In this document: one piece after another, positions 3,001 to 16,957 of the stretch | Layout: every line of letters begins with the position of its first letter | Position numbering within the stretch: the stretch's first letter is position 1 | NCBI GenBank assembly: GCA_018303225.1 | Contig: JAGVYO010000021.1 | Span: 1-50,137, forward strand | DNA: 50,137 bases | Direction: 5' to 3' | Source: Candidatus Woesearchaeota archaeon | Lineage (GTDB): Archaea > Nanobdellota > Nanobdellia > Woesearchaeales > JAGVYO01 | Notes under the pieces: generated by a model | Databases searched by the model: none | The model's input: the letters and a program-made list of their open reading frames with translations, nothing else | Told to the model about the DNA's origin: nothing | Made by a program: the position numbers and the translations under genes

Positions 3001-4250
3001 GCTTCTTTCGGCAGCTGGACAGTGATGTTGGACTGGGTCTCATTCAGTTTTATGGTCTTTTTCCACTTCACCGGTTTGCCGATGACGGCCTGGTATTGGA
3101 TGGTTTTTTCTTCTATAACTGAAATGTTCGTGGCATTGGCGATAGTGGCGTTTTCAAGGTGCTCTTCCAAGACCGAATAGGAAATAGCGTCGATGGTAAG
3201 TCCTACATTGTCCACATCAAAGATCAGCCGGTAGGAACTGGCATTGAAATCATCCAACAAGCAGTTTTCATGGCAGGTGTCATTGAATTCAAGCACAGCC
3301 TGCTGGAATCTTGCTGGCAAGGTAGCTTTCTCTGAATTGATGATTTCCGCCTCCAAATCAGAGAAATTGACATTGTAATAGACGATCTGTGCGCTAATCT
3401 CGTTATTGGCAGTGGAGTTGTATTTCTGGTAGGTTAAAAGGAAGGACTCATTCCAGGCAGTGCCCAACGGTTCCAGATCCAGGAAATTACAGCATTGCGC
3501 ATTGCCGTTGCAGACAGACTGAGTGGATAATGTGTCCAATGATTTGACTTCCCATCTTGTACAGAGGTTGTTTTCATCGATGTTTCCATTGAGTCCGGAA
3601 TTTTCTACAGTGAGGTCGATCACTCCGTCCAGGGGCTCTCTGCCATCGTTATTGGCGTCCCATGCAGAACCGGAATCATACGCCAAATCAATCGAGATAG
3701 ACTTGTCGACTGTTTCGTCGCTTTCTGCGGTTACGTTTGATGCTGTTGGCCCGGGAGATGTTTCATTTTCCATGACAGCAAATCCAGTAATTAAGTTGGA
3801 ATTGGATACATTCAGCCTGTCAGAATCGAAGACCAGATAGGCCTGACCCTCGTGCTCTATGTAAATTTTTGCTGTTCCCCCTGCTGAGACGGATCCGCTC
3901 AGTGCAATGGACCTCAGCTTGCCGACATGCTCGAGGAACCATGTCCTTTCAGTATCTCTTGCAACGGTAAAGGAGACGTCTTGCGTATATGCCGCGGCCT
4001 GTTCGCCGGTAATGAAACCGGTGATTTCCGGCCTGAGGAATAGTCCGAAGGCGATAACAAAGAGCAGGACGGCGACAATCGGCGCGATCCGGAGTGCACG
4101 ATCCTTTATTCTTTGATTCCGTAGGACACGCGCTACCTGCTTCTCGTCATAGCCTTTCCGGACCAGCTCTTGTCCGACGGCTTCCAGTGTGAAAACTGCA
4201 GGAACGCCGCTTTCCGGCTTCTGGTCCCGGATTTTGTCGTTAAGCTTCAT
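1..4250 (-). CDS. Very large membrane-anchored surface protein, partial (C-terminus lies beyond the window start). Contains LamG/concanavalin-A-like lectin domains, tandem Ig-like repeats and a dockerin-like Ca-binding repeat pair.
   Basis: The minus frame stays open from the ATG at 4250-4248 to the window edge. It is absent from the ORF track because it never closes. Hand translation gives MKLNDKIRDQKPESGVPAVFTLEAVGQELVRKGYDEKQVARVLRNQRIKDRALRIAPIVAVLLFVIAFGLFL (cytoplasmic tail plus one TM helix). Later segments are NEWTHVAAIYANESVTFYINGEIAG and DKGTVSLWVRLEDTNPRQVLFDD (LamG-type signatures), and DIDSNGMVQGADQSII / LDVSQNGGVLAFDGALVL (dockerin-like pair, about 930-1110). Two ~95-aa repeats lie around 1400-2000. 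There are dozens of N-x-S/T sequons. Confidence 0.8.
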   Translation of the reverse strand, partial: MKLNDKIRDQKPESGVPAVFTLEAVGQELVRKGYDEKQVARVLRNQRIKDRALRIAPIVAVLLFVIAFGLFLRPEITGFITGEQAAAYTQDVSFTVARDTERTWFLEHVGKLRSIALSGSVSAGGTAKIYIEHEGQAYLVFDSDRLNVSNSNLITGFAVMENETSPGPTASNVTAESDETVDKSISIDLAYDSGSAWDANNDGREPLDGVIDLTVENSGLNGNIDENNLCTRWEVKSLDTLSTQSVCNGNAQCCNFLDLEPLGTAWNESFLLTYQKYNSTANNEISAQIVYYNVNFSDLEAEIINSEKATLPARFQQAVLEFNDTCHENCLLDDFNASSYRLIFDVDNVGLTIDAISYSVLEEHLENATIANATNISVIEEKTIQYQAVIGKPVKWKKTIKLNETQSNITVQLPKEATNINVTKKVENETVEVEKARVKTPDFETSIKTFNAITGNVIAESQEANDTTEIFIEEPVEEIEIEYETEAPQAIEEEINAYSKRITVSSNVHYENILTFTELPVEAPEGAVRLYWLVNDSRTEVNASKFDTNNNSLIDYIEWITPSLSNQTYEVEITILNVQSYPMVGGNWTVAFTTFGIANLTISASNGTTYGNGTPNDLEWLGLRCGNLTLTPVFNGTHVFYENYSCNATAGHIVKVHTVGVHTQEFIFGDQMAYAHNLATNESGYKMTLNGVIIGGGDQSSEGSYKLNLIVTPTDGGFRVNESTYKMTSTVYVDDPGGKVNESSYKLSIVPEPAFISYSGGVTPSDQPANVSPSFTLAINNTAPRINDTVQLSVKVIDADLISMIIASWNGTNGSWMNVSNITVSASSVNYTVNLTVNVSNGNTTGWLFYANDSLGTTFTASALNTFKSDLTGPGFTGQSINFSAPYRGKLVKINVTALDGTALRMVVFGWNDSGIWQNISNVSVSGLITSYNYSVNLTVNASRGAVVGYQFYAKDTSDNWNYSTLATFTVSNAPPSLNGSFIGSQLPLDDSDLVGYWEVEDNAVDTVGISSAGTIDGVINGTTNATGYLARGFRFNGSKRTDGCLYDIDSNGMVQGADQSIISQCNIGNCPVWLTEGTSSCSSTLHCNGLDVSQNGGVLAFDGALVLAQVGKICSGTHVNLGNNESLYFNASGNYTLSAWIYPASLRTYAPIVSRTFRVFADEGYTFALFNSTGSYKLYFSPNNLQTTTIQSNRTVNLNEWTHVAAIYANESVTFYINGEIAGNKSSTAFKDDAYAASRVLVGMETGNANAYTFDGFIDEVAIYNQTLSANEIKERFLFNNTLSTQHLKAAANESRDVDSDNITIAYRWYRNDILNASTVHNESGLLAYYPFDSDAFDYGNDKNGIINSTTLVADGKIGKAYHFDGAHNFINLSYNAFSNNDVDKGTVSLWVRLEDTNPRQVLFDDEGFIRIGYN

Positions 4251-4740
4251 GTTTCTTTTTGGCTCTTTGGTAAACGGTCCATATGGTGGAATCGTCACGA
4301 TGAAGGAGAAGGGCAATCGTATGGAACGTCAATTGGCGATTTTCCTTCAGGTAGAACACCAGGTTTTCAAGCGGGCTTAATGTCCGATTTTTGAACAAGG
4401 AAGGAGTGATGGAGAAGGAGGACGGTTTTGGAACAAACCGTTTCGGGAATTTATGATGGGCGCGATGGCAGGTTGTCGCAATCAGGCGCGGATCGCGATT
4501 AAGGAGGCGGGCTGCCTGGCTGAAGGTAAGCTGAAGGTTCTCGTGGAGATATTTACAGGCCGTTTCCAACGCCGTTAATGCATCCGTAGAAAAAACGGAA
4601 ATCGGGATTTGCGACCCAATGGTTTTCTTTTCCAGGATTTGCTGGATTTCTTCCCCGGAAACCTGCCACTTTTCTTCCAAATAGGCGAGAAATTCTCCTA
4701 TGATCGCTTCCTTGTCGGGTTCAAACGGCCTCTTTTTCAA
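4240..4740 (-). CDS. Small protein with two tandem helix-turn-helix modules (sigma-70 region 4 / LuxR-like); putative transcription regulator.
   Basis: The ORF track gives 166 aa. An internal duplication is visible: LTALETACKYLHENLQLTFSQAARLLNRDPRLIATTCHRA and LSPLENLVFYLKENRQLTFHTIALLLHRDDSTIWTVYQRAKKK. The only available start is TTG at 4740, with no in-frame ATG. Its stop overlaps the ATG of the downstream surface-protein gene (cATGaagctTAA). Confidence 0.6.
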   Translation of the reverse strand: MKKRPFEPDKEAIIGEFLAYLEEKWQVSGEEIQQILEKKTIGSQIPISVFSTDALTALETACKYLHENLQLTFSQAARLLNRDPRLIATTCHRAHHKFPKRFVPKPSSFSITPSLFKNRTLSPLENLVFYLKENRQLTFHTIALLLHRDDSTIWTVYQRAKKKHEA

Positions 4741-4746
4741 TGGAAG

Positions 4747-4784
4747 ATACCTATTTTGTAAGTTTTAATACCTATTTTGTAAGT
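4747..4784. promoter_or_regulatory. Two perfect 17-bp direct repeats (ATACCTATTTTGTAAGT) spaced 21 bp apart. They flank a TATA-like TTTTAATA just upstream of the HTH gene; putative operator/promoter.
   Basis: Read directly: 4747-4763 and 4768-4784 are identical. The AT-rich box at 4763-4771 is centred about 27 nt from the start codon at 4740 on the minus strand. Confidence 0.5.
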
Positions 4785-4850
4785 CTTTATTGGTATTAAT
4801 TAACCTACTTTAATCTATATTTTTCATACTATGTAGGTTTTTTGTTTATA

Positions 4851-5085
4851 AATGTTGCGATTAAGAACAAGAATATCCGATAAAGTACAATGTGACTCAA
4901 ATAGCACAAATGACGCAATAGAGAACAATTCTTTTTCTTGGCAGCAAGGCTCAGGGGAAAAATGGCGCATTCGCAAATATGCCTTTTTTATAGCGTATAG
5001 GTCCATCCCAAAAATTTCGGCACGAAATTTTTGGTCTTTCGCTTTCGCTAAAGAAAATGATTTTTAAATGCGCAATCCTTTTTTC
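4851..5085 (+). repeat. Modular intergenic repeat, copy A (all modules present).
   Basis: Shares the modules aatgt..cg.ttaagaacaagaatat, aatgacgcaatagagaa, aaaaatggcgcatt.gcaaata..gccttttttatagcg, the palindrome CCAAAAATTTCGGCACGAAATTTTTGG (5008-5034), and tcgctttcgctaaagaaaat.atttttnaatgcgcaat with copies at 9165-9361 and 11981-12145. Confidence 0.8.
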
Positions 5086-5138
5086 ACAATGGCTGATTTG
5101 CTTATTTTCTATATGGAAGTTTTATCTGACAACAAAAC

Positions 5139-5146
5139 TTATAAAG
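5139..5146 (+). promoter_or_regulatory. TATA box candidate (TTATAAAG) for xpd.
   Basis: Centred about 26 nt upstream of the ATG at 5168, consistent with a leaderless or very short-leader transcript. Confidence 0.4.
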
Positions 5147-5167
5147 AAACCGGCGATGCGTTGCTGC

Positions 5168-7057
5168 ATGCAATCGGGAATTCTTTTTCCGCATGATACT
5201 ATCCGGAAAATCCAGGATGAGATGGTGAAGGATGTCTATGATTCGGTTTCTTCCAAAAAGAACCTGATTGTGCACGCTCCTACCGGGTTAGGGAAAACAG
5301 CTGCCAGCTTAGGGCCTGCGTTAACCTATGCCCTGGAACATGACCTGACTGTATTTTTCTTAACCTCGCGGCATACGCAGCACCGGATTGCGATAGAAAC
5401 CCTGCAGAAAATCAGGGAAAAACATGATAAGATGCACAGGAAGATCGTCGCCTGCGATTTGATCGGCAAGCAATGGATGTGTTTAGTCCCTAATGTGCAG
5501 AGCCTGTACAGCAATGAATTCCATGAATTCTGCAACAGCCAAGTGGAAGATTACAAATGCGAGTTTTATGTGAAAACCAAGAAAAAAACCGGCCAGCCTA
5601 CGGTGGAAGCCAAAAAAGCGCTGTCTGAATTAGAGCAGCAGGGGCCGAAACATACCGAGCAGATTATCCAATTCTGCCAGGAAGAAGGCCTTTGTCCGTA
5701 TGAGACGGCCACGCTGCTGGCCGAGCATGCCAATGTCATCATCGCGGATTATTATTACGTGTTCCATCCTTCGATACGCCAGGCCTTATTCCAACGGGCC
5801 AAAAAAGAATTGGGGAAATGCATCCTCATCGTGGATGAAGGGCATAATCTGCCGAAACGCTGCCGCGATCTGCTGACGCACCGGTTAAGCACCGTAGCCG
5901 TGGAACGCGCAATCAAGGAAGCCGAGAAATATGAATTGGATGATATCCGGACCCACCTGATAGGCATAAGGGATGTGCTGCTGGATTATGCCGAAGACCT
6001 GAGAAAAGAAGAAGTTATGCTGGAAGAGATGAAGGTCGCAAAAGAGGATTTTGCAGGGAAAATCAATGCAATCCATAATTTTGATGAGATGATCACGGAT
6101 TTGCAATTCGCTGCGGATGAAATCAGGAAAAAGCAGAAGCAGAGCTATATCGGCAGCGTGGCTGATTTCCTGAGCAACTGGAGCGGGCCTGATTTCGGGT
6201 ATGTAAGGGTGTTTTCCAGAGCTGAGGGAAAAAAACCGTTGTTTACGTTGAGCTACCGATGCCTGGATCCCTCCCTGATCACAAAAGAGGTGATCGGGCA
6301 GGCGCATTCCACGATCATCATGTCCGGTACGCTGACCCCGACAGCCATGTATAAAGACGTGCTGGGATTTGAGGAGGCTGTTGAAAAAGAATACCCGAAC
6401 CCGTTTCCGAAGCAGAATCAGCTGAACCTGATCATCCCGGAGACCACCACAAAGTTTACAGCGCGGAATGAGGCGCAGTTCAAGCGCATTGCGGCCTTTT
6501 GTGCGAATATCGTGAATAGCGTTCCCGGCAATTCGGCATTGTTTTTTCCGAGCTATTTCCTGCGGGACCGGATCCATATGCATTTTGAAGGATTGTGCGA
6601 GAAAACGGTATTTCTGGAAAAGCCAGGCATGACGAAAGAGGAGAAGCAGGCATTCCTGGAGCGGTTCAAAAAATATAAGGATTCGGGGGCTGCTCTTTTG
6701 GGCGTCGCCACCGGCTCTTTCGGGGAAGGGATTGATTTGATTGGGGATTATCTAAAAGCAGTGGTTGTTGTCGGCTTGCCGCTCGAGAAGCCGAATCTGG
6801 AAACGCAGGCCCTGATCGATTATTACGAGCAGAAGTTCGGGAAAGGCTGGGATTATGGGTATGTATTGCCGGCCATAACCAGGACGCTGCAGAATGCAGG
6901 GCGGTGCATCCGCAGCGAGACGGATAGGGGAGTGATTGTGTTCCTGGATGAGCGGTACGCCTGGCCGCGGTATTTCAAATGCTTTCCGAAGGAGATGGGC
7001 GTCACGATTTCAAAATATTATCCGGAGAAGATCAAGGAATTCTTCTCTGTATCATAA
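5168..7057 (+). CDS. xpd: XPD/Rad3-type 5'-3' DNA helicase with Fe-S domain.
   Basis: Contains Walker A APTGLGKT, the DEAH-type box VDEGHNL, four Cys in the Fe-S domain region (CLVPN..FCNSQVEDYKCEF..LCPYE), and the C-terminal motif QNAGRCIRS. The ORF-track start at 5057 lies inside the repeat, so ATG 5168 (or 5156) is preferred because of the TATA spacing. Confidence 0.85.
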   Translation: MQSGILFPHDTIRKIQDEMVKDVYDSVSSKKNLIVHAPTGLGKTAASLGPALTYALEHDLTVFFLTSRHTQHRIAIETLQKIREKHDKMHRKIVACDLIGKQWMCLVPNVQSLYSNEFHEFCNSQVEDYKCEFYVKTKKKTGQPTVEAKKALSELEQQGPKHTEQIIQFCQEEGLCPYETATLLAEHANVIIADYYYVFHPSIRQALFQRAKKELGKCILIVDEGHNLPKRCRDLLTHRLSTVAVERAIKEAEKYELDDIRTHLIGIRDVLLDYAEDLRKEEVMLEEMKVAKEDFAGKINAIHNFDEMITDLQFAADEIRKKQKQSYIGSVADFLSNWSGPDFGYVRVFSRAEGKKPLFTLSYRCLDPSLITKEVIGQAHSTIIMSGTLTPTAMYKDVLGFEEAVEKEYPNPFPKQNQLNLIIPETTTKFTARNEAQFKRIAAFCANIVNSVPGNSALFFPSYFLRDRIHMHFEGLCEKTVFLEKPGMTKEEKQAFLERFKKYKDSGAALLGVATGSFGEGIDLIGDYLKAVVVVGLPLEKPNLETQALIDYYEQKFGKGWDYGYVLPAITRTLQNAGRCIRSETDRGVIVFLDERYAWPRYFKCFPKEMGVTISKYYPEKIKEFFSVS

Positions 7058-7205
7058 AAATCCGCATATCAAAGAAAGTAGCTGGTCAAACCCTGTCCTT
7101 TAGGGTAGGATCAACCGCTTTCGGCGGATTTTTAGGATGCCAAAAATGTCGCCCTAAAGAGCGGGGTTTCAAACCCCGCACAAAAAATGTATGGCGACAT
7201 TTTTG
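7056..7205. repeat. Two tandem long hairpins with A5/T5-capped arms.
   Basis: AAAAATCCGC (7056-7065) pairs with GCGGATTTTT (7124-7133) and encloses ACCCTgtcctttAGGGT. CAAAAATGTCGCC (7141-7153) pairs with GGCGACATTTTTG (7193-7205) and encloses GCGGGGTttcaaACCCCGC (7161-7179). Confidence 0.7.
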
Positions 7206-7219
7206 TGCATGACAAAAGG

Positions 7220-7227
7220 TTTTTATG
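7220..7227 (+). promoter_or_regulatory. TATA box candidate (TTTTTATG) for the pterin dehydratase gene.
   Basis: Centred about 26 nt upstream of the ATG at 7250. Confidence 0.4.
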
Positions 7228-7249
7228 TGTAGAGCATCAGGGAATCATT

Positions 7250-7528
7250 ATGCCTGCCCTATCCGACCTCGAAATCCGGGAAAAGCTGAAAAGCCTGAAT
7301 AAATGGGGCCTTTTTGAAGGGGCGCTTGTCAAACGGTTTGAGTTCTCTGGCTTCAAGGAAGCCATGGATTTTGTCAATAAAGCAGCAGCGATTGCAGAAG
7401 AAATGGACCACCACCCGGATATCTTCATCAGTTACAACAAGGTGTATTTCAAGCTTATGACGCACAGTGAAAATGGCCTTACGGAAAAGGATTTTGAGTT
7501 GGCTTCTAAAATCGATGTTTCTGTCTAG
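7250..7528 (+). CDS. Pterin-4a-carbinolamine dehydratase (PCD/DCoH family).
   Basis: The 92-aa product MPALSDLEIREKLKSLNKWGL...FKEAMDFVNKAAAIAEEMDHHPDIFISYNKVYFKLMTH carries the family DHHPD core. The upstream part of the ORF-track call (7187) overlaps the hairpin repeat. Confidence 0.8.
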   Translation: MPALSDLEIREKLKSLNKWGLFEGALVKRFEFSGFKEAMDFVNKAAAIAEEMDHHPDIFISYNKVYFKLMTHSENGLTEKDFELASKIDVSV

Positions 7529-7598
7529 TATACTAATTACTATACTAATCTACATAAGAGAAACATTTATATACTAGCTCTACCCTAGTAGGTAAAGA

Positions 7599-8009
7599 AT
7601 GGTCATCCTGTACGATCGGTTTAATTTGCCAGATGATATTTACGAAGTCATATTCGCGACCAAGCAGCAGGTGATTGTGGCGAAGCTGCTGGTCGAGATG
7701 ATCAAAGAGAAGGGAGGTGAAATCGGCAAGACGGAAATGTCGCTGTTCGCGACGAAGCTGCACGAGGGGAATTTCATCACCGATACACTGGATGACCCCA
7801 TGTATAAAGGCAAAAAGGTGAAGATCTCCTACAACAAACGGCAGTTTTACGACCGCATCCTGACGCCCATGAAGAGCATGGGCATCATCGACTACGACCT
7901 GTATAAGAAGACATACAGGCTGAGCGACAAGTTCAACAAAGACATGATCCGCATCGGACTGCTATGGACCAAAGAACTGAGAAAAGCACCGCATGCCTAT
8001 AAGGAATAG
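7599..8009 (+). CDS. Hypothetical protein, 136 aa, possibly a winged-helix fold.
   Basis: ORF track. TTTATATA at 7566-7573 lies about 29 nt upstream of the ATG. No recognisable catalytic motif. Confidence 0.5.
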   Translation: MVILYDRFNLPDDIYEVIFATKQQVIVAKLLVEMIKEKGGEIGKTEMSLFATKLHEGNFITDTLDDPMYKGKKVKISYNKRQFYDRILTPMKSMGIIDYDLYKKTYRLSDKFNKDMIRIGLLWTKELRKAPHAYKE

Positions 8010-8014
8010 CGCTT

Positions 8015-8160
8015 CCCCGGGCTCCCTGTTGCTGTTTTCTCACACCACCCCCCACATCAAAAATAGGGAGCCCATCCTTATTCCAGTCCTTTCAGGAGAA
8101 CAGGCTGTTTTCCTGCCGGGGAAAAAGAGGTAACGGGACAGGCCGGATATAGGCCTGTCC
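8015..8160. ncRNA. Candidate structured RNA or structured UTR: a closed three-way-junction-like fold plus a 9-bp terminal hairpin.
   Basis: CCCCGG (8015-8020) pairs with CCGGGG (8116-8121). Inside are GGCTCCCT (8020-8027)/AGGGAGCC (8065-8072) and CAGGAGAACAG (8093-8103)/CTGTTTTCCTG (8105-8115). A further hairpin is GGACAGGCC (8136-8144)/GGCCTGTCC (8152-8160). The strand is undetermined. Confidence 0.35.
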
Positions 8161-8300
8161 TTCCTTCCAACATGCTCAACAAATACAATATATGGATGGC
8201 AGCGGCCATCATAGGATTTGCCTTTCTTAGCCTGAAAGACAAGCCAGATTTCTCGTTCCAATCGCTATCTTTTTTAATCCGATGGGTTTTCTGAGTTCTG

Positions 8301-8834
8301 ATGAAGCACATCACCGAGAAAGAAGCCATTTCTTTATTGAAGAAATATTCTCCAGATGAGCGGGTATTCAAAATTGTTCTTAACCACGTCAAAGCCGTGC
8401 AGAAAAAAGCGCTGGCGATGGCGCAGGGAATTCCCGGATTGGATTTGGAACTGATCAAGATAGGCTCTTTGTTGCACGATATCGGACGGTTCAAAACAGG
8501 ACCCGGGCCGAAAGGCATCCGGCATGGCGTGATTGGCGGTGAGATATTGCGTAAAGAGGGCGTCGGACAATATGCTTCAATTGCGGAATGCCATATCGGA
8601 GCAGGAATTAGGAAAGAGGACATTGAGAAACAGAAGCTGGATCTGCCGCTGAAGGATTTCATCCCTGAAACAAAGGAAGAAAAGATTGTTGCGCAGGCGG
8701 ACAATTATATCTTCGGTGACAAAGAGGCACCGTTTGAGAAGGTTCTGGAGCGGTTTGAGAAAGAGCTTGGCCACGATTACGCGGAACGCGTCAAAAGGAT
8801 GCAGAAAGAGATTGACGGGATGAAGGAAGAATAA
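8301..8834 (+). CDS. HDIG-domain metal-dependent phosphohydrolase.
   Basis: Contains LLHDIGRF (HDIG motif), ECHIGAGI, and a conserved D in AQADNYIF. Confidence 0.8.
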   Translation: MKHITEKEAISLLKKYSPDERVFKIVLNHVKAVQKKALAMAQGIPGLDLELIKIGSLLHDIGRFKTGPGPKGIRHGVIGGEILRKEGVGQYASIAECHIGAGIRKEDIEKQKLDLPLKDFIPETKEEKIVAQADNYIFGDKEAPFEKVLERFEKELGHDYAERVKRMQKEIDGMKEE

Positions 8835-8847
8835 ACAATATCTGCTA

Positions 8848-9135
8848 CTATACCCCCAGCATGGCCCTTAATTCCTCGCTGGGCTGCCAGACAGGATCAA
8901 AGGTGACTTCCACCCGGACGTCTTTGACGCCGTTCAATTCGGCGATTTTCTGCTGGATCTCGCTGACCAGCATGGGACCGTACGGGCAGGCCATGGAGGT
9001 GAAGGTCATTTTTACGAATACTTTGCCTTCGTCCACCTTCACTTCGTATATCAAGCCTAAGGTCCAGACGTCCAATTGGATCTCGGGGTCTTCTACCTTC
9101 TTCAATACCTCAATCACGTTGTCTTTGGTAAGCAT
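8848..9135 (-). CDS. DUF59/MIP18-family Fe-S cluster assembly protein (SufT/PaaD-like).
   Basis: The 95-aa product contains VEDPEIQLDVWTLGLIY...MTFTSMACPYGPML..., typical of the DUF59 family. Confidence 0.75.
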   Translation of the reverse strand: MLTKDNVIEVLKKVEDPEIQLDVWTLGLIYEVKVDEGKVFVKMTFTSMACPYGPMLVSEIQQKIAELNGVKDVRVEVTFDPVWQPSEELRAMLGV

Positions 9136-9164
9136 ATGGATAAAGACAGATACGACTTCTTAAA

Positions 9165-9361
9165 AATGTATCGGTTAAGAACAAGAATATTAAATTTCTG
9201 GAGGGAATATTGGAAGAAACTCTTTATTAGTGCGAATGACGCAATAGAGAAGGATTCTTTTTTCTCTGCGGTTAGGCTCATTACAAAAATTTCGGCACGA
9301 AATTTTTGGGATAGTCGCTTTCGCTAAAGAAAATAATTTTTTGATGCGCAATTCTTTTTTT
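9165..9361 (+). repeat. Modular intergenic repeat, copy B.
   Basis: Shares the ttaagaacaagaatat, aatgacgcaatagagaa, CAAAAATTTCGGCACGAAATTTTTG (9284-9308) and tcgctttcgctaaagaaaataattttttgatgcgcaat modules with copy A. It lacks the ggcgcatt...tttttatagcg module. Confidence 0.8.
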
Positions 9362-9430
9362 GATTTCATTTTTATTAAGGTTGCATTCCAGTTCTAAAAT
9401 AGCAAAGAATAAAAACCGAACCTTCATGCT

Positions 9431-11965
9431 ATGCCGTGGATGATGGACAATAAGCAGATTAAAGAGGACCTCAAGAAGAAGAGTTTCAAGGAGCCTGAAA
9501 AATATTACCCCACCAAGGCCCTGAGCGAACTGGGCTACCGATTAAACCATTGCAAGAGCTGCAAGCGTATCTTCTATTCCATTGAAAAAAGCGACCTTTG
9601 CGGCGACCCGGTCTGTTCGGGCGGCTTCCGGTTCATAGGCAACACGCCGGCCAGAAACAAACTGGATTATATCGAAGCATGGAAGACATTTGCGGCCATC
9701 CTCAAGAAAAGAGGTTATACCGAGATTCCCCGGTATCCGGTCGTTGCACGATGGCGGGAAGACGAGTATTGGGTCGGCGCTTCGATCTACGATTTCCAGC
9801 CGTATGTGGTAAGCGGCGAAGTCGAACCGCCTGCAAACCCATTGGTGGTGCCGCAGTTCTGCATGCGCTTCAACGATGTGGATAACATCGGCATCACAGG
9901 CGCGCATTACAGTTGCTTCATCATGCAGGGCCAGCATGCCTTTGTCCCGGCCAAAGACTACAACAAAGACCAATACCTGAAAGACCTGCACGAATGGTTC
10001 GTGAAAGGCATCGGTGTCCCAAAAGAAGAATTGTTCATCCAGCCGGACTCGTGGGCCGGCGGAGGCAATGCGGGCGTAAGCCTGGAATTCTTTTCCCGCG
10101 GCCTGGAGATCGCAAACCAAGTGTACATGCAGTGGGAAGCCACCCCAACTGGCTTGAAGGATCTCAGTATAAAAGTGCTGGATATGGGCCAGGGCCAGGA
10201 ACGAGTGGCATGGTTTTCCCAGGGGGCCTCCACCAGCTACGAAACGACGTTCCCTGCGGTCTGTAAGAAGCTATATGCTGCGGCAGGCATCAAGGCAGAC
10301 AAAGAGCTGATGAAAAGGTTCTTACCGTATGCCTCCTACCTGAACATCGATGAAGTGGAGAACATTGACAAGGCATGGAAAAGTGTAGCAAATAAAGTAG
10401 GTATCGGAAGCGCTGAACTGAAAAAGCAGATACTGCCGCTGGCAGCCCTCTATTCCGTTGGCGAGCATGCGAGAGCATTGCTGGTCGCGCTCTCGGACGG
10501 TGCATTGCCTTCCAACGTGGGCGGCGGCTATAACCTGCGCATCATACTACGAAGAGCATTGTCATTCATCGACCAATACCGGTGGAAACTAGACCTGAAG
10601 GACATCTGCGATTGGCATGCGGCTTATTTGAAACCATTATTCCCTGAACTGAGCGAAAGCCTGGAAGAAGTGCACAAGATTCTGGATGTCGAGAGGGAAA
10701 AATACAATGCCACCAAGGAGAAATCCCGGCAGATTGTGGAACGGCTGCTGAAAGAGGAGATCACCGAGCAAAAACTGCTCCAATTGTACGACAGCCAGGG
10801 CATTTCCCCTGAATTAATCCGGGAAGAGGCTGCTAAACTTGACAAAAAGGTGTCGGTGCCTGAAAATTTCTACTCCATGGTCTCGGAACTGCACGAGAAG
10901 AAAGAGCAGGTGCACGCCACCGCACGGGAAGAGAAGCTGGATCTGAAGGACGTGCCGGCCACAGAAGCGCTGTATTTTGATGACTACCTGAAAACCAGCA
11001 ATGAAGGCAAAGTGCTGAAGATCATCGGAAATAACGTGGTCTTGGATAAGACTGTAGCCTATCCCACTTCGGGCGGGCAGGTCCATGATGTAGGTATGAT
11101 CAATGGACAACTTCTGGTAGCGGTGTTCAAACAGGGGAACGTGATTGTGCATGCCCTAAAAGACAAGCCTTCTTTCAAGGTTGGCGATAAGGCAAAGGTA
11201 GAGGTGGATAAAGAGCGACGAAAGCAATTGGCCCAGCATCATACAGCCACCCACATCATCAGCGCCGCGGCCCGGAAAGTATTGGGAAATCACGTGAACC
11301 AGGCGGGCGCAAAAAAGACCGTGGAGAAGGCGCACCTGGACATCACCCATTATGAGAATGTTTCTGACGAAGAACTGAAAAAGATTGAGGAGGAAGCCAA
11401 CAAGATTGTGAAAAAGAAAATTGTAGTAAATAAATTCTTCCTGCCCAGAAACGAGGCAGAGAAGAGATACGGTGTCCGGATTTACCAGGGTGGAGCTGTA
11501 CCCGGCAAAAAACTACGGATTGTGGAAATTGAAGGCACAGATGTGGAATGCTGCGGTGGCACGCACCTGAACAATACGTCCGAAGCCGATGAAATAAAGA
11601 TTCTGAAATCCTCCAAAATACAGGATGGGATCGTCCGTTTGACTTTTACAGCCGGAAAGGCCCTGCAGAAAGAGCAGAAAGCCTCCAGCGGAATATTGGA
11701 AGAGGCTGCCAGACTGCTGGACGTGAAGCCCGATGAGGTGCCGGCAAGGGCGAATGAGCTGTTCGAGAAATGGAAAAAAGCCCGGAAGGCCGCCAAGAAA
11801 GGCGACAGAATGGACGCCAACGAATTGAAATTGACGGCAAAAGAACGATGGGAAGGCGATCCGCTGGCGAAAACAGCCGAAGTGCTAAGCACCCAGCCGG
11901 AGCATATCATCAATACGCTGAAGCGGTTCCTGAATGAATTGGACGGTTTCAAGAAAAAGTCCTGA
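9431..11965 (+). CDS. alaS: Alanine--tRNA ligase, archaeal type.
   Basis: 844 aa. Has an N-terminal Cys cluster (CKSCKRIF...CGDPVC), the editing-domain motifs HHTATHII and CCGGTH, and a class II core. Confidence 0.9.
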   Translation: MPWMMDNKQIKEDLKKKSFKEPEKYYPTKALSELGYRLNHCKSCKRIFYSIEKSDLCGDPVCSGGFRFIGNTPARNKLDYIEAWKTFAAILKKRGYTEIPRYPVVARWREDEYWVGASIYDFQPYVVSGEVEPPANPLVVPQFCMRFNDVDNIGITGAHYSCFIMQGQHAFVPAKDYNKDQYLKDLHEWFVKGIGVPKEELFIQPDSWAGGGNAGVSLEFFSRGLEIANQVYMQWEATPTGLKDLSIKVLDMGQGQERVAWFSQGASTSYETTFPAVCKKLYAAAGIKADKELMKRFLPYASYLNIDEVENIDKAWKSVANKVGIGSAELKKQILPLAALYSVGEHARALLVALSDGALPSNVGGGYNLRIILRRALSFIDQYRWKLDLKDICDWHAAYLKPLFPELSESLEEVHKILDVEREKYNATKEKSRQIVERLLKEEITEQKLLQLYDSQGISPELIREEAAKLDKKVSVPENFYSMVSELHEKKEQVHATAREEKLDLKDVPATEALYFDDYLKTSNEGKVLKIIGNNVVLDKTVAYPTSGGQVHDVGMINGQLLVAVFKQGNVIVHALKDKPSFKVGDKAKVEVDKERRKQLAQHHTATHIISAAARKVLGNHVNQAGAKKTVEKAHLDITHYENVSDEELKKIEEEANKIVKKKIVVNKFFLPRNEAEKRYGVRIYQGGAVPGKKLRIVEIEGTDVECCGGTHLNNTSEADEIKILKSSKIQDGIVRLTFTAGKALQKEQKASSGILEEAARLLDVKPDEVPARANELFEKWKKARKAAKKGDRMDANELKLTAKERWEGDPLAKTAEVLSTQPEHIINTLKRFLNELDGFKKKS

Positions 11966-11980
11966 AGTTTCCGTTTTCTA

Positions 11981-12145
11981 CAGGCTCAAAAGAAAAAAAT
12001 GGCGCATTGGCAAATAAAGCCTTTTTTATAGCGACTAGGGGAAATCAGCAAAAATTCCGGCACGGAATTTTTGAGTTGGCCGCTATCGCTAAAAAATCTT
12101 TTTTAATGCGTTTTTTGAGCGAAAGCTTTTTAAACGCACAATATC
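11981..12145 (+). repeat. Modular intergenic repeat, copy C.
   Basis: Shares aaaaatggcgcattggcaaataaagccttttttatagcg, the palindrome CAAAAATTCCGGCACGGAATTTTTG (12049-12073) and a cgctaaaaaatcttttttaatgcg-like module. The palindrome differs from A/B by a paired change (TTTCG/CGAAA to TTCCG/CGGAA). Confidence 0.75.
12127..12134 (+). promoter_or_regulatory. TATA box candidate (TTTTTAAA) upstream of the Leu-rich leader ORF.
   Basis: Centred about 31 nt upstream of the ATG at 12162, which implies a leader of only a few nucleotides. Confidence 0.4.
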
Positions 12146-12161
12146 TTCCTACCGAGTTACA

Positions 12162-12224
12162 ATGGCAACGAATTCCTTAAACCTTAACCAATTGATGATT
12201 TCCTTACTTCTATTGCTGCGATAG
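12162..12224 (+). CDS. Candidate leucine-rich leader peptide upstream of leuABCD (MATNSLNLNQLMISLLLLLR).
   Basis: Hand translation: atg gca acg aat tcc tta aac ctt aac caa ttg atg att tcc TTA CTT CTA TTG CTG cga tag. Eight of 20 codons are Leu, including five consecutive Leu codons that are all different. The ORF lies 100 nt upstream of leuA. Confidence 0.55.
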   Translation: MATNSLNLNQLMISLLLLLR

Positions 12225-12252
12225 GTTCCGATCTTTTTATCAAGGTCGAACC
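12224..12252 (+). promoter_or_regulatory. An 11-bp hairpin (one bulge) that begins at the last base of the leader stop codon and contains a T5 tract. A second hairpin follows at 12256-12273 with TTTAATT after it.
   Basis: GGUUC-C-GAUCUU (12224-12235) pairs with AAGGUC-GAACC (12242-12252). CATTG (12256-12260) pairs with CAATG (12269-12273). Confidence 0.45.
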
Positions 12253-12324
12253 GCCCATTGTTTCCAGCCAATGTTTAATTAAACCACCCAACATGTCACC
12301 CAACACGTACGGAGGAACGGCATC

Positions 12325-13860
12325 ATGAAACATATCAGAATATTTGACACCACATTAAGAGACGGCGAGCAGAGCCCGGGCGCCAATCTGACGCCGGCCG
12401 AAAAGCTCATGATCGCAAAGCAGCTGGAGAAGATGAATGTGGACATCATCGAAGCCGGCTTCCCCATCTCGTCCAAAGGCTCTTTCGAGGCAGTCGAAGC
12501 CATCGCCAAGGAAGTGAAAAAACCCGTCATATGCGCATTGGCACGGACCAATAAGGAAGACATCGATGCGGCCTGGAACGCGATCAAGCACGCCAAGAAG
12601 CCGCGCATCCACGTGTTTGTGGCTACCTCACAGATCCATATGGAGCACAAGCTCAAGAAATCGCCGGAGGAAGTCATCAAGATGGCCTCCGAGGCGGTGA
12701 AATACGCCAAATCGTTCTGCGAGGACATTGAGTTTTCGCCGGAGGATGCATCGCGCAGCGATATCGATTACATGTGCAGGGTCATCGAGGCTGCCGTGGC
12801 AGCTGGTGCAACGACCATCAATATCCCAGATACCGTGGGCTATGCGCATCCGGATGAGTACGGATCGCGCTTCAGATATGTGCAAGAGAATGTCGCCAAT
12901 ATCAAGGGCGCCATCTTAAGCGCCCACTGCCATAATGATTTGGGCCTGGCTACGGCCAATTCGCTGGCGGCCATTGAAAATGGGGCTACGCAGATTGAAG
13001 GCACGATCAACGGCATCGGCGAACGGGCCGGAAACGTGGCGCTGGAAGAGGTCATCATGGCCCTGAAGACACGAAAAGACTATTATGATGCAGACACGGC
13101 CATCAATACCAAAGAGATTTTCCGCACCAGCCGGATGGTCTCCAAATTGACGGGCATGCCGATCCAGTGGAATAAGGCCATTGTCGGAAGAAACGCATTT
13201 TCCCACGAAGCCGGCATCCACCAGCACGGCGTATTGTCATACAAGAAGACCTATGAAATCATGTCCTCGGAAGACATCGGTTGGGAAGGGGAGAATATCG
13301 TCTTCGGCAAATTGTCAGGAAAACATGCTGTGGAAGATGTACTGAAGAAAGCGGGCATCACCCTGAACAAGGAACAGGTGCTGCAGGTGACGGCCAAGAT
13401 CAAAGAGCTGTCGGACAAGCAGAAACAGATCGAACAGAGCGACGTGATAGCCTTGGCATTGGATACGCTAAACCAGCTCAACGAAGGGGAAGAGATCATA
13501 AAGCTGGATGAATGGAGCGTGTTGACCGGCAATAAGATCACACCCAGTTCAACCGTCGGATTGACCATTGACGGTGAAAAGAAAGTAGGCACGGCCGCCG
13601 GCGTCGGACCGGTGGATGCAGCTTCGAATGCCATCAAATCTGTGATCGGGCCGTTCATCCACCTCAAGGAATACAACCTGAAGGCCATCACCGGCGGAAC
13701 GGATGCGCTGGCCAGCGTCAGCATCAAGCTGGAAGACAATCAAAGGAATGTTTTTGTCTCAGAGGCTGTAGAACCGGACGTGATTATGGCCTCGGTGAAA
13801 GCCATTATCAAAGGCGCCAACAAAGCCCTCGTTTTCAAGAAAAGGCACAAAAAGGAGTGA
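12325..13860 (+). CDS. leuA: 2-isopropylmalate synthase.
   Basis: Contains [26 protein letters not shown], and a C-terminal LeuA dimer/regulatory domain. GGAGG lies 8-9 nt upstream of the ATG. Confidence 0.9.
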
Positions 13861-15269
13861 TGATGGGAGAAAACCTGTTCAACAAGGTATGGAAACTGCA
13901 TTCGGTACGGGAATTGCCTTCTGGCCAGACGCAGCTCTTCATCGGGCTGCATTTGATTCACGAAGTTACCAGTCCGCAGGCCTTCCAGATGCTGCGGGAA
14001 CGCGGTGAAAAGGTAGTGTACCCCGGGCACACATTTGCTACTGTGGATCATATCGCACCCACGGACGATCAAACACGGCCTTTCAAAGATCCGCTCGCGG
14101 AGCAGATGATGAAAGCCCTGGAGAAGAATACCAAAGAATTCGGCATCAAACTTTTTGACATGAAAAGCCAGAAGCAGGGTATCGTGCACGTGATCGGGCC
14201 CGAATTGGGGATTACGCAACCGGGCATGACCATCGCGTGCGGAGACAGCCATACGAGCACCCACGGCGCTTTCGGTGCTGTCGCTTTCGGCATCGGAACA
14301 AGCCAGATACGGGATGTCTTGGCTACCCAATGCCTGGCGATGGCAAAGCCCAAGGTGCGCCGCATCAACGTGACAGGAAAACTCGGAAAGGGGGTGTATG
14401 CCAAAGACGTGATACTGAGCATCATCCGCAAATTGGGTGTCAAAGGGGGCATTGGATACGCGCACGAATACGGCGGCGAAGTGCTGGAACGGATGAGCAT
14501 GGAAGAACGGATGTCCATCTGCAACATGAGCATTGAAGGCGGCGCACGGGCAGGCTATGTGAATCCCGACCGGACCACATTCGATTACATCAAAGGCCGT
14601 GAGTTTGCACCGAAAGGGGCGGCTTTTGAAAAAGCAGTCGACTGGTGGAAATCCATTGCTTCGGACAAGAATGCTAAATACGATGATAGGGTTGAATTAA
14701 ATGGGTCTAAGCTAGAGCCCACTATCACCTGGGGCATCAATCCCGGACAGGCAGTTGGCATCTCGGAGAATTTTCCCGAGGTAGGAGAGCTGCCGGAAGA
14801 TCAGCAGAATACAGCCAGGGAAGCTTACGAGCACATGTCGTTTGAACCGGGAAAGCCTGTCGCGGGGACTAAAATTGATGTGGCGTTTATCGGTTCGTGC
14901 ACCAACAGCCGCATCTCAGATTTGCGGGAAGCGGCTAGGATCGTGAAAGGAAAAAAAGTCGCGAAAGGTATCCGCGCACTGGTGGTGCCGGGCTCGCAGC
15001 AGGTCAAGAAGGCTGCGGAGAAAGAAGGTCTTGACAGGATATTCAGCGAAGCAGGCTTTGAATGGAGAGGAGCGGGCTGCTCCATGTGCTTAGCGATGAA
15101 CCCGGACAAGCTGAAAGGAAGGGAGATATGCGCCTCTTCCTCCAACCGGAATTTTAAAGGCCGACAGGGAAGCGCCACCGGCAGGACCATCCTGATGAGC
15201 CCGGCCATGGTGGCTGCGGCAGCATTAAATGGAAAGCTGGTGGATGTGAGGGATCACCTGCCCAACTAA
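13860..15269 (+). CDS. leuC: 3-isopropylmalate dehydratase large subunit (long, about 470 aa form).
   Basis: Carries the aconitase-family motifs CGDSHT, GSCTNSR and CSMCLAMN. The start overlaps the leuA stop (gTGATGatg) and AAAGGAG lies just upstream. Confidence 0.9.
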
Positions 15270-15270
15270 A

Positions 15271-15891
15271 ATGAGCCAAAACCTAAATGTCAAAACCGTA
15301 AAAGGGCGTGCCCTCCCGCTGACCGGGGATGATATTGATACAGACCGGATCATTCCGGCGCGCTACCTGAAGTGCGTGACGTTTGATGAGCTTGGGCAGT
15401 ATGCCTTTTACGACGAACGCTTCAGGGAAGACGGCACGAAAAAGAACCACCCGTTCAATGACCCGCGCTATAAGGGTGCTTCCATCCTGATCGTGAATAA
15501 AAATTTCGGCTGCGGCTCTTCGAGGGAGCATGCGCCGCAATCGCTGATGCGGTTCGGGATCAACGGCATCATCGGCGAGAGCTTTGCAGAGATATTCGCG
15601 GACAACTGCACCACACTCGGCATTCCGGTGGTCGTCGCCCAGAAATCGGACATAGGGAACCTGATGAGCGTGGTGAAGGACGATCCGGCCTGCGAAGTAA
15701 GAATCGACCTCGAAAGCAAGGAAGTGTGCTATGGGGATTTCAGCATACCTGTCCACCAGCAGGAATCCTCACGCCGGGTGCTTGTCGAAGGGACATGGGA
15801 CTCCATGGCAGTGCTGAAAAGCGCGGCTGCAGAGACGAAACAATTGGCTAACCGATTGCCTTATCTGAAGGGATTCCAGGAGGATGCATGA
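15271..15891 (+). CDS. leuD: 3-isopropylmalate dehydratase small subunit (long, about 206 aa form).
   Basis: Contains the GCGSSREHA motif. It starts 1 nt after the leuC stop. Confidence 0.9.
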   Translation: MSQNLNVKTVKGRALPLTGDDIDTDRIIPARYLKCVTFDELGQYAFYDERFREDGTKKNHPFNDPRYKGASILIVNKNFGCGSSREHAPQSLMRFGINGIIGESFAEIFADNCTTLGIPVVVAQKSDIGNLMSVVKDDPACEVRIDLESKEVCYGDFSIPVHQQESSRRVLVEGTWDSMAVLKSAAAETKQLANRLPYLKGFQEDA

Positions 15892-16955
15892 AAACGTACA
15901 AGATAGCGGTATTGCCAGGCGATGGCATCGGGCCGGAGATCATGAAGGCAGCGCAAACCGTATTGGATGCTGTAAGCAGGAAATTCAACGTAGAATTTAA
16001 TTATACCGAAGCGGATGTAGGGGGAGTTGCCATTGAAAAACACGGCACGGCACTTCCCAAAGAGACGGTAAAAATCTGCGAGAATTCGGATGCCATCCTC
16101 TTCGGGGCAGTAGGCGATCCCCGGTATGACGACCTGCCGCCGGAAAAGAAGATCGAGCCCGTGGCGCTGCTGGGGCTGCGGAAGCATTTTGATCTGTTCG
16201 CGAATCTACGGCCTTCGTTCCTATATCCTTTCCTATACAGGACTTCCCCGCTGAAAGAATCCATCGTGAAAGAGGGATTCGACATCCTCATTGTGCGCGA
16301 ACTGACAAGCGATGCATATTTCGGGAAGAAGGTCCTGAAAGAAGATATGGGATCGGACGAGATGCTGTACCGGAAGCCCGAAGTGGAGCGGATTGCGAAA
16401 ACAGCGTTTGAGGCAGCGCGGAAACGAAAGAAATATGTGACCTGCGTGGACAAATCCAATGTGCTCTCCTCCAGCATTTTGTTCCGTCGAACGGTTACCG
16501 AAGTGGCGAAGAAGTATCCCGATGTAAAACTGGATTATCTCTTCATCGATAATGCCACCACGATGATCATCAAAAGGCCCAAGGATTTTGATGTGATGGT
16601 CACCACCAACATGTTCGGCGATATCTTAAGCGACGAAGCCGCGATGCTCAGCGGCAGCCTGGGCATGCTGCCTTCGGCCTCCATCAACGAGAAGGGCTTC
16701 GGGATGTACGAGCCTGCAGGCGGTTCTGCGCCGAAAATGGCCGGAAAAAATACCGCCAACCCGATTGCGCAGATTTTGTCGGCAGCCCTGATGCTGCGGC
16801 ATTCCTTTAAGATGGAGAAGGAAGCCCAAGCCATTGAATCGGCTGTCCAGAAAACCCTCCACAAATACCGGACCAAAGACATCATGGAAGAAGGGATGGA
16901 GCAAGTTGGCACGAAGGAGATGGGCGAAAAGATTGCGGAGAATATCGGCAGATAG
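15888..16955 (+). CDS. leuB: 3-isopropylmalate dehydrogenase.
   Basis: Contains NMFGDILSDEAAMLSGSLGMLPSAS. It has an ATGA overlap with leuD. Confidence 0.9.
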   Translation: MKTYKIAVLPGDGIGPEIMKAAQTVLDAVSRKFNVEFNYTEADVGGVAIEKHGTALPKETVKICENSDAILFGAVGDPRYDDLPPEKKIEPVALLGLRKHFDLFANLRPSFLYPFLYRTSPLKESIVKEGFDILIVRELTSDAYFGKKVLKEDMGSDEMLYRKPEVERIAKTAFEAARKRKKYVTCVDKSNVLSSSILFRRTVTEVAKKYPDVKLDYLFIDNATTMIIKRPKDFDVMVTTNMFGDILSDEAAMLSGSLGMLPSASINEKGFGMYEPAGGSAPKMAGKNTANPIAQILSAALMLRHSFKMEKEAQAIESAVQKTLHKYRTKDIMEEGMEQVGTKEMGEKIAENIGR

Positions 16956-16957
16956 CC

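Follow-up and report, generated by a model that had tools for sequence, protein, structure and literature searches.

A large family of intergenic palindromic repeats with a constrained central hairpin in a Woesearchaeota-type archaeon and its sister species

Contig JAGVYO010000021.1 of a Candidatus Woesearchaeota archaeon carries, in three of its intergenic spacers, a sequence block built around a perfect palindrome, and raises the question of what this block is and why it recurs. The contig was analysed as one stretch of 50,137 nt (the window), and positions without a contig name refer to it. A sequence-only reading of the window had described the three copies, here called A, B and C, as a modular repeat and had offered three identities for it: an element like MITEs (miniature inverted-repeat transposable elements), a family of small RNAs or a shared promoter-operator cassette. 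A repeat search recovered all three copies, at 4851-5085, 9165-9361 and 11981-12145, with the common blocks in the same order and orientation and the plus-strand loop GCA in each palindrome. The analysis was extended to the source genome (614 kb in 41 contigs, 56% complete, 50% G+C; contigs with C-numbers) and to metagenome contigs (L-numbers). The repeat belongs to a real, large family, uncharacterised in the literature searched, and represents a new archaeal variant of dispersed palindromic repeats. On balance, we consider it rather likely to be an old REP/ERIC-like non-coding repeat with a constrained hairpin, probably stopping transcription in both directions.

The family is defined by its core, CAAAAATTYCG-GCA-CGRAATTTTTG. 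With up to two mismatches this pattern occurs 52 times in the 614 kb, 25 times on one strand and 27 times on the other, and the same pattern read backwards, used as a control, gave no match in the same genome; chance would yield far fewer cores. Further copies beyond the window thus exist. The spaced pattern AAAAATT-N9-AATTTTT was found 55 times, compared with 0-1 occurrences for each other spacing from 5 to 15. A generic A5/T5 hairpin as a common terminator design in this genome was considered and rejected (13 non-family vs 53 family examples). When variant or interrupted cores are added, the number of copies rises to ~60. A metagenome scan identified 82 contigs with the family, all from the same sampling project; about half of them are 97.5-100% identical to the source genome, and the others represent a sister species whose proteins are ~80% identical. 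Pooling of genome and metagenome followed by de-duplication left 117 distinct copies. A Woesearchaeota-type (DPANN) archaeon and its sister species therefore carry the repeat at a density of ~100 copies per Mb.

In the aligned copies, one element is a quasi-palindrome of ~125 nt with the layout GCGCATTGG..T-run..GCGrTAGsG – core – CCTAaCCGC..A-run..CCAATGCGC. In detail, the left half of the consensus reads (T)GGCGCATTGG, A-run, T-run, GCGrTAGsG and ~6 variable nt up to the core, and the right half reads ~6 variable nt, CCTAaCCGC, A-run, T-run and CCAATGCGCC(A). The inverted repeats at the ends are either GCGCATTGG / CCAATGCGC or TTTTCCATTGG / CCAATGGAAAA. Profile models built from the left arm and from the right arm each matched both sides in reverse complement, which indicates that both arms come from one pool of variants. 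Some copies, including copy A (4902-4957), carry a duplicated arm and others are truncated; nested and mosaic copies also occur. The core is single in each element, tandem duplications affect the arms and never the core, and no inverted doublets are present. Over the 149-nt alignment of all copies the mean column identity is 46%, with the core essentially fixed. A conserved small open reading frame (ORF) starting from ATGGCGCATTGG was rejected, as the frames run into different early stops in the different copies, which were read by eye.

The distribution of the family is narrow. The exact core pattern is absent from 60 relatives of the same order, from the species-representative genome collection and from viral contigs. 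A covariance model gave only six weak single hits across 300 genomes of the same order, and the family is absent from two contigs of relatives with an AlaRS identity of 66-68%.

Gene context was determined with a simple ORF caller, which gave a coding density of 88%. In this densely coding genome all cores are intergenic. They lie in 13 of 115 divergent, 28 of 404 tandem and 7 of 122 convergent spacers, and no spacer type is enriched (chi-square p=0.21). Of the 28 tandem copies, 15 have the loop oriented with the genes and 13 against them. All three window copies had been noted to precede plus-strand genes, and this proved to be an accident of the window, since genome-wide the copies occupy all spacer types and both strands. 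Where a gene end faces the element, the distance from stop codon to core is often 45-95 nt, so that the element begins 0-35 nt past the stop; gene starts are typically 110-150 nt from the core.

TATA-like motifs showed a sharp genome-wide peak 26-35 nt before the ATG (121 hits in 231 genes) over a background of 3-10 per 5-nt bin outside the peak. Most transcripts thus appear to be leaderless, and promoters need ~40 nt of room. The copies lie in the room left between a stop codon and the promoter that follows it, or between the promoters of two divergent genes. Within the elements a TATA-like motif was found in at most 5 of 52 copies per 10-nt bin on either strand, with no fixed position. The TATA-like TTTTTTATAGCG reported ~25 nt upstream of the palindrome is present in copies A (4984-4995) and C (12024-12035), where its T-run begins 25 nt before the core, but it is a feature of one small subfamily and does not extend to the family as a whole. 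The real TATA boxes of the window genes sit outside the elements, 26-35 nt before each ATG, and the distances from core to TATA box or start are not fixed (118, 131 and 97 nt in the window). At xpd, the longest ORF begins at 5057, within copy A. Comparison with the sister species (MAQDVLFPHP.. vs MQSGILFPHD..) placed the real start at ~5169, the BRE/TATA (TFB recognition element and TATA box; AAAACTTATAAAG) lies at about 5135-5147, with the TATA box at ~5139, downstream of copy A, and the gene caller applied to the near-identical strain L118 put the start even later. The CCAATGG end of the element was also considered as a source of start codons and rejected, its ATG being mostly out of frame with the downstream ORF.

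The elements are rich in T-runs. Runs of five or more T average 2.46 and 2.40 per element on the two strands, with at least one per strand in every element, whereas other spacers have 1.47 such runs per 149 nt when both strands are counted together. Oligo-T tracts cause archaeal RNA polymerase to terminate, and with such tracts on both strands, transcription that enters the element should end there. Judged from the sequence, termination probably occurs in both directions at the element: transcription arriving from either side would be stopped by the hairpin flanked by A5/T5 together with two to three oligo-T tracts per strand.

The pairing of the core was studied with all copies. RNAalifold gave support for the 11-bp core hairpin only. 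In an arm-swap test, the arms of the same copy folded at -19.7 kcal/mol vs -22.0 kcal/mol for arms taken from different copies and -13.6 kcal/mol for shuffled arms (permutation p=0.99). Own arms pair no better than swapped ones, so that the complementarity of the arms reflects the palindromic consensus of the family and not folding of the individual copy. A long RNA hairpin with copy-specific pairing of the outer arms was rejected on both results. In the core stem, 98.5% of the cells are paired and double-sided changes occur at 4 of the 11 pairs; the covariation score was not reached in any of 500 shuffles. In the pooled set, pair 9 has T:A in 65 and C:G in 40 copies, pair 11 is G:C in 101 and C:G in 12, and a single copy, C31:6061, has three compensated pairs. 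The double substitution seen earlier in copy C (TTCCG/CGGAA vs TTTCG/CGAAA in A and B) is therefore real and is not the only case of its kind. The outer 8 bp of the stem are near-invariant in the 117 copies, a figure to be read with the search pattern in mind, which limits the variation visible there. Arm-based searches recovered few arms without an intact core, hence the conservation of the core is not merely an effect of how the copies were found. The central hairpin is under constraint.

Several observations point to a mechanism that may keep the stem symmetrical. Whether a core has T:A or C:G does not follow arm similarity (permutation p=0.70; in 24 of 42 copies the nearest neighbour has the same state), which indicates that the switch either arises repeatedly or is exchanged between copies; a division of the family into two phylogenetic subfamilies by core type was rejected on the same ground. 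One-sided stem changes are all transitions; by strand they number 4 vs 6 in the genome and 5 vs 14 in the pooled set (binomial p ~0.06), with no clear strand preference. At C40:17411, comparison with L058, from a strain 96.7% identical over 425 nt, revealed an exactly inverted loop, GCA vs TGC, although the flanks and 115 of the 120 arm positions have stayed the same. The loop is inverted as well at both loci shared with the sister species, where the stems are identical at 22 of 22 (C5:4411 / L086:5615) and 21 of 22 positions (C16:2389 / L037:381) and the arms are 58-71% identical when aligned collinearly vs 44-66% if inverted. Because the loop inverts, a strand assigned from it is arbitrary. 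Replacement of three bases by their exact reverse complement is what template switching across a hairpin or cruciform characteristically leaves behind. Quasipalindrome-associated template-switch mutagenesis is described in E. coli, where an imperfect inverted repeat becomes perfect in one step and the spacer may be inverted; it is not known to have been documented in archaea. One-step perfecting of the repeat and spacer inversion are both encountered here, with the difference that the bacterial case is a mutational mechanism and the present one an element family. In a single step, template switching can carry a substitution over into the opposite arm, and compensated changes alone are therefore no proof of selection. 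The claim that the pairing is under selection is weakened to this extent, and the covariation of the core may be mutational and not selective. We propose that template switching at a hairpin or cruciform maintains the symmetry of the palindrome in the DNA itself, which would yield both the compensated doubles and the exact loop inversion, and that a sequence-specific constraint acts on the outer 8 bp of the stem, putatively protein recognition or short-patch gene conversion among copies.

The copies were compared with the sister species (L113-L117), which is syntenic around alaS and has an AlaRS 83% identical. Its spacer between the FeS-protein gene and alaS is 98 nt long vs 295 nt in the window; the element is absent, the gene-adjacent sequences are kept, and the alaS and FeS-protein promoters persist in the empty spacer. 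The element is also absent from the sister xpd upstream region, and the element at C5:1712 is missing from the sister species. Conversely, a copy between the Nre and DHH genes is present in the sister species only and lacking in the window. Two element loci are common to both species. Copies have thus been gained and lost over species-divergence time, and some persist.

Strain L118 is much closer, with an AlaRS 99% identical and 98.6% identity over 14.4 kb aligned. Copies A and C are identical in the two strains. Copy B has 64 differences over 120 arm positions and also indels, while its core (25/25) and both promoter blocks are identical. It lies in a tract of ~650 bp (9049-9705) in which the coding flanks are ~7% different, the rest being ~99.9% identical to L118; 136 of the 200 differing alignment columns in the 14.4 kb fall within 8980-9579. 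The copy B tract looks like an allele imported by recombination and centred on the element. A gene-conversion donor for copy B of L118 was sought, and none better than 77-87% identical over part of the length was found. A second divergent pair, C5:1712 and L056, has 31 differences in 120 arm positions and one in the core.

Tests for mobility were largely negative. In 59 copies no target-site duplication was detected, the longest word shared by the flanks averaging 3.47 nt for the same copy vs 3.40 nt for different copies; a duplication of 2-3 nt is possible. No pair of different loci is at least 90% identical over 100 nt. No insertion polymorphism was found among strains 97-100% identical, apparent indels among metagenome contigs being N-gaps or assembly differences, and no copies were found on viral contigs. 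The 56%-complete genome contains no match to the Y1 transposase domain (PF01797), for which control genomes do score, and no TnpB or rve domain. Among the four domain families searched, the only transposase found is the DDE_Tnp_1 protein (56 bits) of a ~900-bp IS5-like insertion sequence (IS) at C25:2757-3654, whose perfect 18-bp terminal inverted repeats, GGCTCTGTCCTGAATCTC, are unrelated to the family. Spread of the repeat would have been rare and by way of duplication or recombination, not precise cut-and-paste, because copies A and B share flanking sequence, target-site duplications are lacking and no young copies exist.

An element still jumping at present is difficult to reconcile with these data. 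An active MITE or REPIN-like element, the core hairpin of which would be the cis-site of a transposase acting in trans (for example a Y1/HUH enzyme encoded in the unsequenced 44%), would explain the high copy number, the strictly intergenic location, the inverted-repeat arms, the nested and mosaic copies and the presence/absence differences from the sister species at no fewer than four loci. An invariant outer stem with an inner stem conserved in structure only is also the pattern expected of a hairpin-binding enzyme. We regard this explanation as improbable, in view of the missing Y1, TnpB and rve domains, the unrelated ends of the sole DDE element, the absence of target-site duplications and of any pair of loci at 90% that would signal a recent burst, and the lack both of insertion polymorphism among strains and of copies on viral contigs. 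Of the three identities offered by the sequence-only reading, the MITE-like one nevertheless comes closest, though it stops short at target-site duplication, parent element and young copies. The other two fare worse. A promoter-operator cassette serving the plus-strand genes downstream, or small RNA genes with the TTTTTTATAGCG box as their promoter, would be favoured by the location of all three window copies upstream of such genes and by the T-rich TATA-like box of two of them, whose T-run begins 25 nt before the hairpin. In the genome as a whole, the copies follow no orientation rule, seven of them lie between convergent genes, TATA-like motifs inside the elements are scarce, and the true promoters are external to the element and are retained in the sister species where the spacers are empty. 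A dedicated RNA gene is made still less credible by the loop flips between strains, the one-sided changes without clear strand preference, the lack of a conserved internal promoter and the absence of any Rfam match at E <=1. The cassette, with no enrichment in any spacer type, can be set aside, and the two possibilities together appear very improbable.

Binding of the 25-bp palindrome as duplex DNA by an abundant dimeric host protein (a nucleoid protein, an SMC-loading factor or a global regulator), with the arms as vehicle, would fit the outer 8-bp half-sites CAAAAATT / AATTTTTG, which stay near-invariant across two species while their surroundings decay; symmetry and the lack of orientation preference also suit a dimer. 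The variable distance to TATA box or start speaks against a classical operator, and a dimer bound to duplex DNA leaves the pairing of the central 3 bp unexplained, though template switching could account for it. No candidate protein was found, and we hold this explanation to be unlikely. Maintenance of the core by molecular drive as a recombination or DNA-uptake signal, similar to the DNA uptake sequences known as DUS/USS, would leave the core uniform and make its surroundings hot spots of import. The ~650-bp divergent tract centred on copy B in an otherwise 99.9% identical strain would be of this kind. Differences between strains are also ~3x denser within 300 nt of cores, coding positions included (0.84% vs ~0.27%), with clusters at C20:2145, C40:17423, C39:1160 and C17:21678. 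Most cores, however, have no nearby differences, equally dense clusters lie far from cores, only a handful of independent loci contribute, and one core per 10 kb is ~1/10 of the density of known uptake sequences. To our knowledge, no competence system is known for these archaea. An uptake signal seems very improbable.

The preferred reading, an old dispersed repeat with a constrained hairpin that probably terminates transcription from both sides, also meets objections. Termination was deduced from the sequence, and 13 of 48 copies lie between divergent genes, where a terminator is superfluous. A terminator needs no specific outer stem, which implies that something else recognises or homogenises it. 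The strain difference at copy B compares the alleles of two lineages and is not a sign of fast local mutation, and at the species level the loop flips depend on arms 58-71% identical, for which aligning them collinearly gives only a modest advantage over inverting them. With 56% of the genome available, an enzyme that mobilises the family may have escaped detection. A broader possibility, to which we give a minor share of our confidence, is that the core is a lineage-specific recognised signal read by a dedicated protein of REP-binding, chromosome-organising or uptake/recombination type. Such a core would be maintained at ~100 loci per Mb across species while its carrier decays, its symmetry being policed by template switching.

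The element was compared with known systems. ERIC/IRU elements of enterobacteria are imperfect palindromes of about 127 bp. The present family resembles them in length, in being an imperfect palindrome over its whole length, in its strictly intergenic location and in its tens to hundreds of copies. Longer forms with internal insertions, the lack of a known transposase, long residence at the same loci and the absence of coding capacity are further common features. It differs in its archaeal host, in the concentration of conservation in a 25-bp hairpin, and in its arms, which are ~50-70% alike and occur as interchangeable variants. The likeness is one of design only, homology between domains being not expected, and the family is set beside ERIC by description. 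REP, BIME and REPIN sequences with their RAYT transposases are short palindromes in mosaic arrangements, for which roles in termination and mRNA stabilisation were proposed (PMC2817692, PMC3116915, PMC3733652). Common to both are a short palindrome (20-40 nt), high copy number (for REP sequences, more than ~100 per genome), extragenic location and variable linker modules. One end of a REP palindrome carries the conserved tetranucleotide GTAG or CGTC (PMC3733652), whereas the core described here has no such tag; it begins with CAAAAATT and ends with AATTTTTG, and the adjoining positions are variable. Its cores are single and not inverted doublets, its stem is AT-rich and not GC-rich, and no RAYT/Y1 gene, which REPs usually flank, was found in the 56% of the genome available.

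Prokaryotic MITEs are likewise small, AT-rich and intergenic with inverted-repeat ends. A prokaryotic MITE census lists a Woesearchaeal genome at 105 MITEs per Mb, one of its densest carriers, with the elements undescribed there (PMC11602168), and the ~100 per Mb of the present family agrees with that figure. Unlike MITEs, the family has no target duplication, no matching parent IS in the available part of the genome and no near-identical copies, and its centre, not its termini, is conserved. Bidirectional intrinsic terminators and archaeal oligo-T terminators share the exact A5-stem-loop-stem-T5 design of the core and the two to three T-runs of at least five per strand; many copies also start within ~35 nt of a stop codon, as judged from the stop-to-core distances. 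Such terminators do not form sequence-conserved families with homologous flanks, and a quarter of the present copies lie between divergent genes. In the full-text literature searched, no characterisation of dispersed REP/ERIC-type palindromes in archaea was found, the MITE census being the only related report (PMC11602168). Together with the empty Rfam search this bears out the earlier impression of an undescribed element.

The three window copies and their parts are listed in Table 1. The extra outer left arm of copy A was matched by the arm models at 4910-4953. Module 2 spans 4902-4936 in copy A and 9228-9262 in copy B. Modules 1 and 2 are found genome-wide only in these two copies, which are also mutual nearest relatives in arm similarity. 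Hence A and B are local duplicates that carried flanking sequence along, and module 1 is a co-duplicated flank outside the repeat family proper. The modular nature of the family is real, but these two modules are a matter of local duplication.

Table 1. Copies of the repeat in the window and their component parts.
Feature	Positions	Strand	Description
Copy A, module 1	4846-4876	+	TTATAAATGTTGCGATTAAGAACAAGAATAT; elsewhere only at copy B
Copy A, extra outer left arm	4902-4957	+	ATGACGCAATAGAG..TTCTTTTTCTTGGCAGCAAGGCTCA; tandem second arm without a core of its own; also in copy B
Copy A, inner left arm	4958-5008	+	AAAAATGGCGCATTCGC..CCTTTTTTATAGCGTATAGGTCCATCC; repeat search, arm-model match
Copy A, core	5009-5033	+	perfect 11-bp stem, 3-nt loop: CAAAAATTTCG GCA CGAAATTTTTG; same in strain L118
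Copy A, right arm	5034-5097	+	GGTCTTTCGCTTTCGCTAAAGAAAATGATTTTTAAATGCGCAA..CACAATGG; repeat search, arm-model match
Copy B, module 1	9160-9190	+	overlaps the minus-strand TATA region TTTTTAAG of the divergent FeS-assembly gene 8848-9135
Copy B, left arm	9228-9283	+	..ATGACGCAATAGAGAAGGATTCTTTTTTCTCTGCGGTTAGGCTCATTA; repeat search, arm-model match
Copy B, core	9284-9308	+	25/25 identical in strain L118
Copy B, right arm	9309-9361	+	GGATAGTCGCTTTCGCTAAAGAAAATAATTTTTTGATGCGCAATTC..; repeat search, arm-model match
Copy C, left arm	11981-12048	+	..AAAAAAATGGCGCATTGGCAAATAAAGCCTTTTTTATAGCGACTAGGGGAAATCAG; starts 16 nt past the alaS stop codon
Copy C, core	12049-12073	+	C:G variant: CAAAAATTCCG GCA CGGAATTTTTG
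Copy C, right arm	12074-12126	+	AGTTGGCCGCTATCGCTAAAAAATCTTTTTTAATGCGTTTTTTGAGCGAAAGC; then directly TATA-like TTTTTAAAC of the leu leader

The genes flanking the copies encode an XPD-type helicase, alanyl-tRNA synthetase and LeuA and, on the minus strand, a small helix-turn-helix (HTH) protein and an FeS-assembly protein; the source records of AlaRS homologues name them as Woesearchaeota or Nanoarchaeota. Between alaS and a minus-strand gene of 258 aa lie copy C, the leu leader and leuABCD (~5 kb, 11966-16957). The counterparts of these two genes are only 3 nt apart in the sister species (L113:8607/8611), which means that the whole leu operon was inserted here or deleted there, with copy C at the left junction. 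A 21-nt direct repeat in tandem, ATACCTATTTTGTAAGTTTTA, whose two copies are 90% identical, occupies 4747-4788, immediately upstream of the minus-strand HTH gene (4240-4740).

Other repeats were observed in the source genome outside the window. A second family is a twin hairpin of ~52 nt with TGTCA..TGACA ends and a GAGCATGCTC centre, located at C17:26745-26915, C11:1040-1125 and C5:10701-10800 and also just past cores at C36:5569, C31:844, C29:304, C40:41938 and C27:7564. Its insertion points are within the family core after CGRAATT, or 4 nt past the core. At C36:5569 it is inserted neatly into a right arm that is otherwise canonical, between CTGC and TTTTCCC, which indicates that the twin hairpin moved more recently than the core family and that it prefers T-rich sites. 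In the core at C6:4041 a T is replaced by G (CGAAATTGTTG), precisely where three other cores carry a twin-hairpin insertion; the near-identical contig L070 keeps the canonical base, and the change may be a coincidence or a footprint. A further hairpin family, CCAC-NNNN-C-loop-G-NNNN-GTGG, occurs in the sister species with covarying stems (for example CCACCCGTCGTAGACGGGTGG and CCACTTATCTCAGATAAGTGG) at L113:4995-5015, 16564-16584 and 16693-16713, and a similar form, CCACCACTCCGAGAGTGGTGG, was seen in the source genome upstream of C6:4041 and C27:6001.

In bacterial genomes, dispersed palindromes of the REP/ERIC type are textbook knowledge. In this DPANN archaeon, with a genome of ~1 Mb, more than 1% of the DNA belongs to one such family (estimated from 60 copies of ~125 bp in 614 kb), and the same genome harbours at least one further repeat family that inserts into it. 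Covariation of the kind usually associated with RNA may here arise from a DNA-level mechanism, given the exact loop inversion between strains and the compensated changes unlinked to copy ancestry, which calls for caution in covariation-based discovery of non-coding RNAs. If the core is indeed a transcription stop or a site recognised by a protein, the family would offer a handle on gene punctuation in organisms that are not yet cultured.

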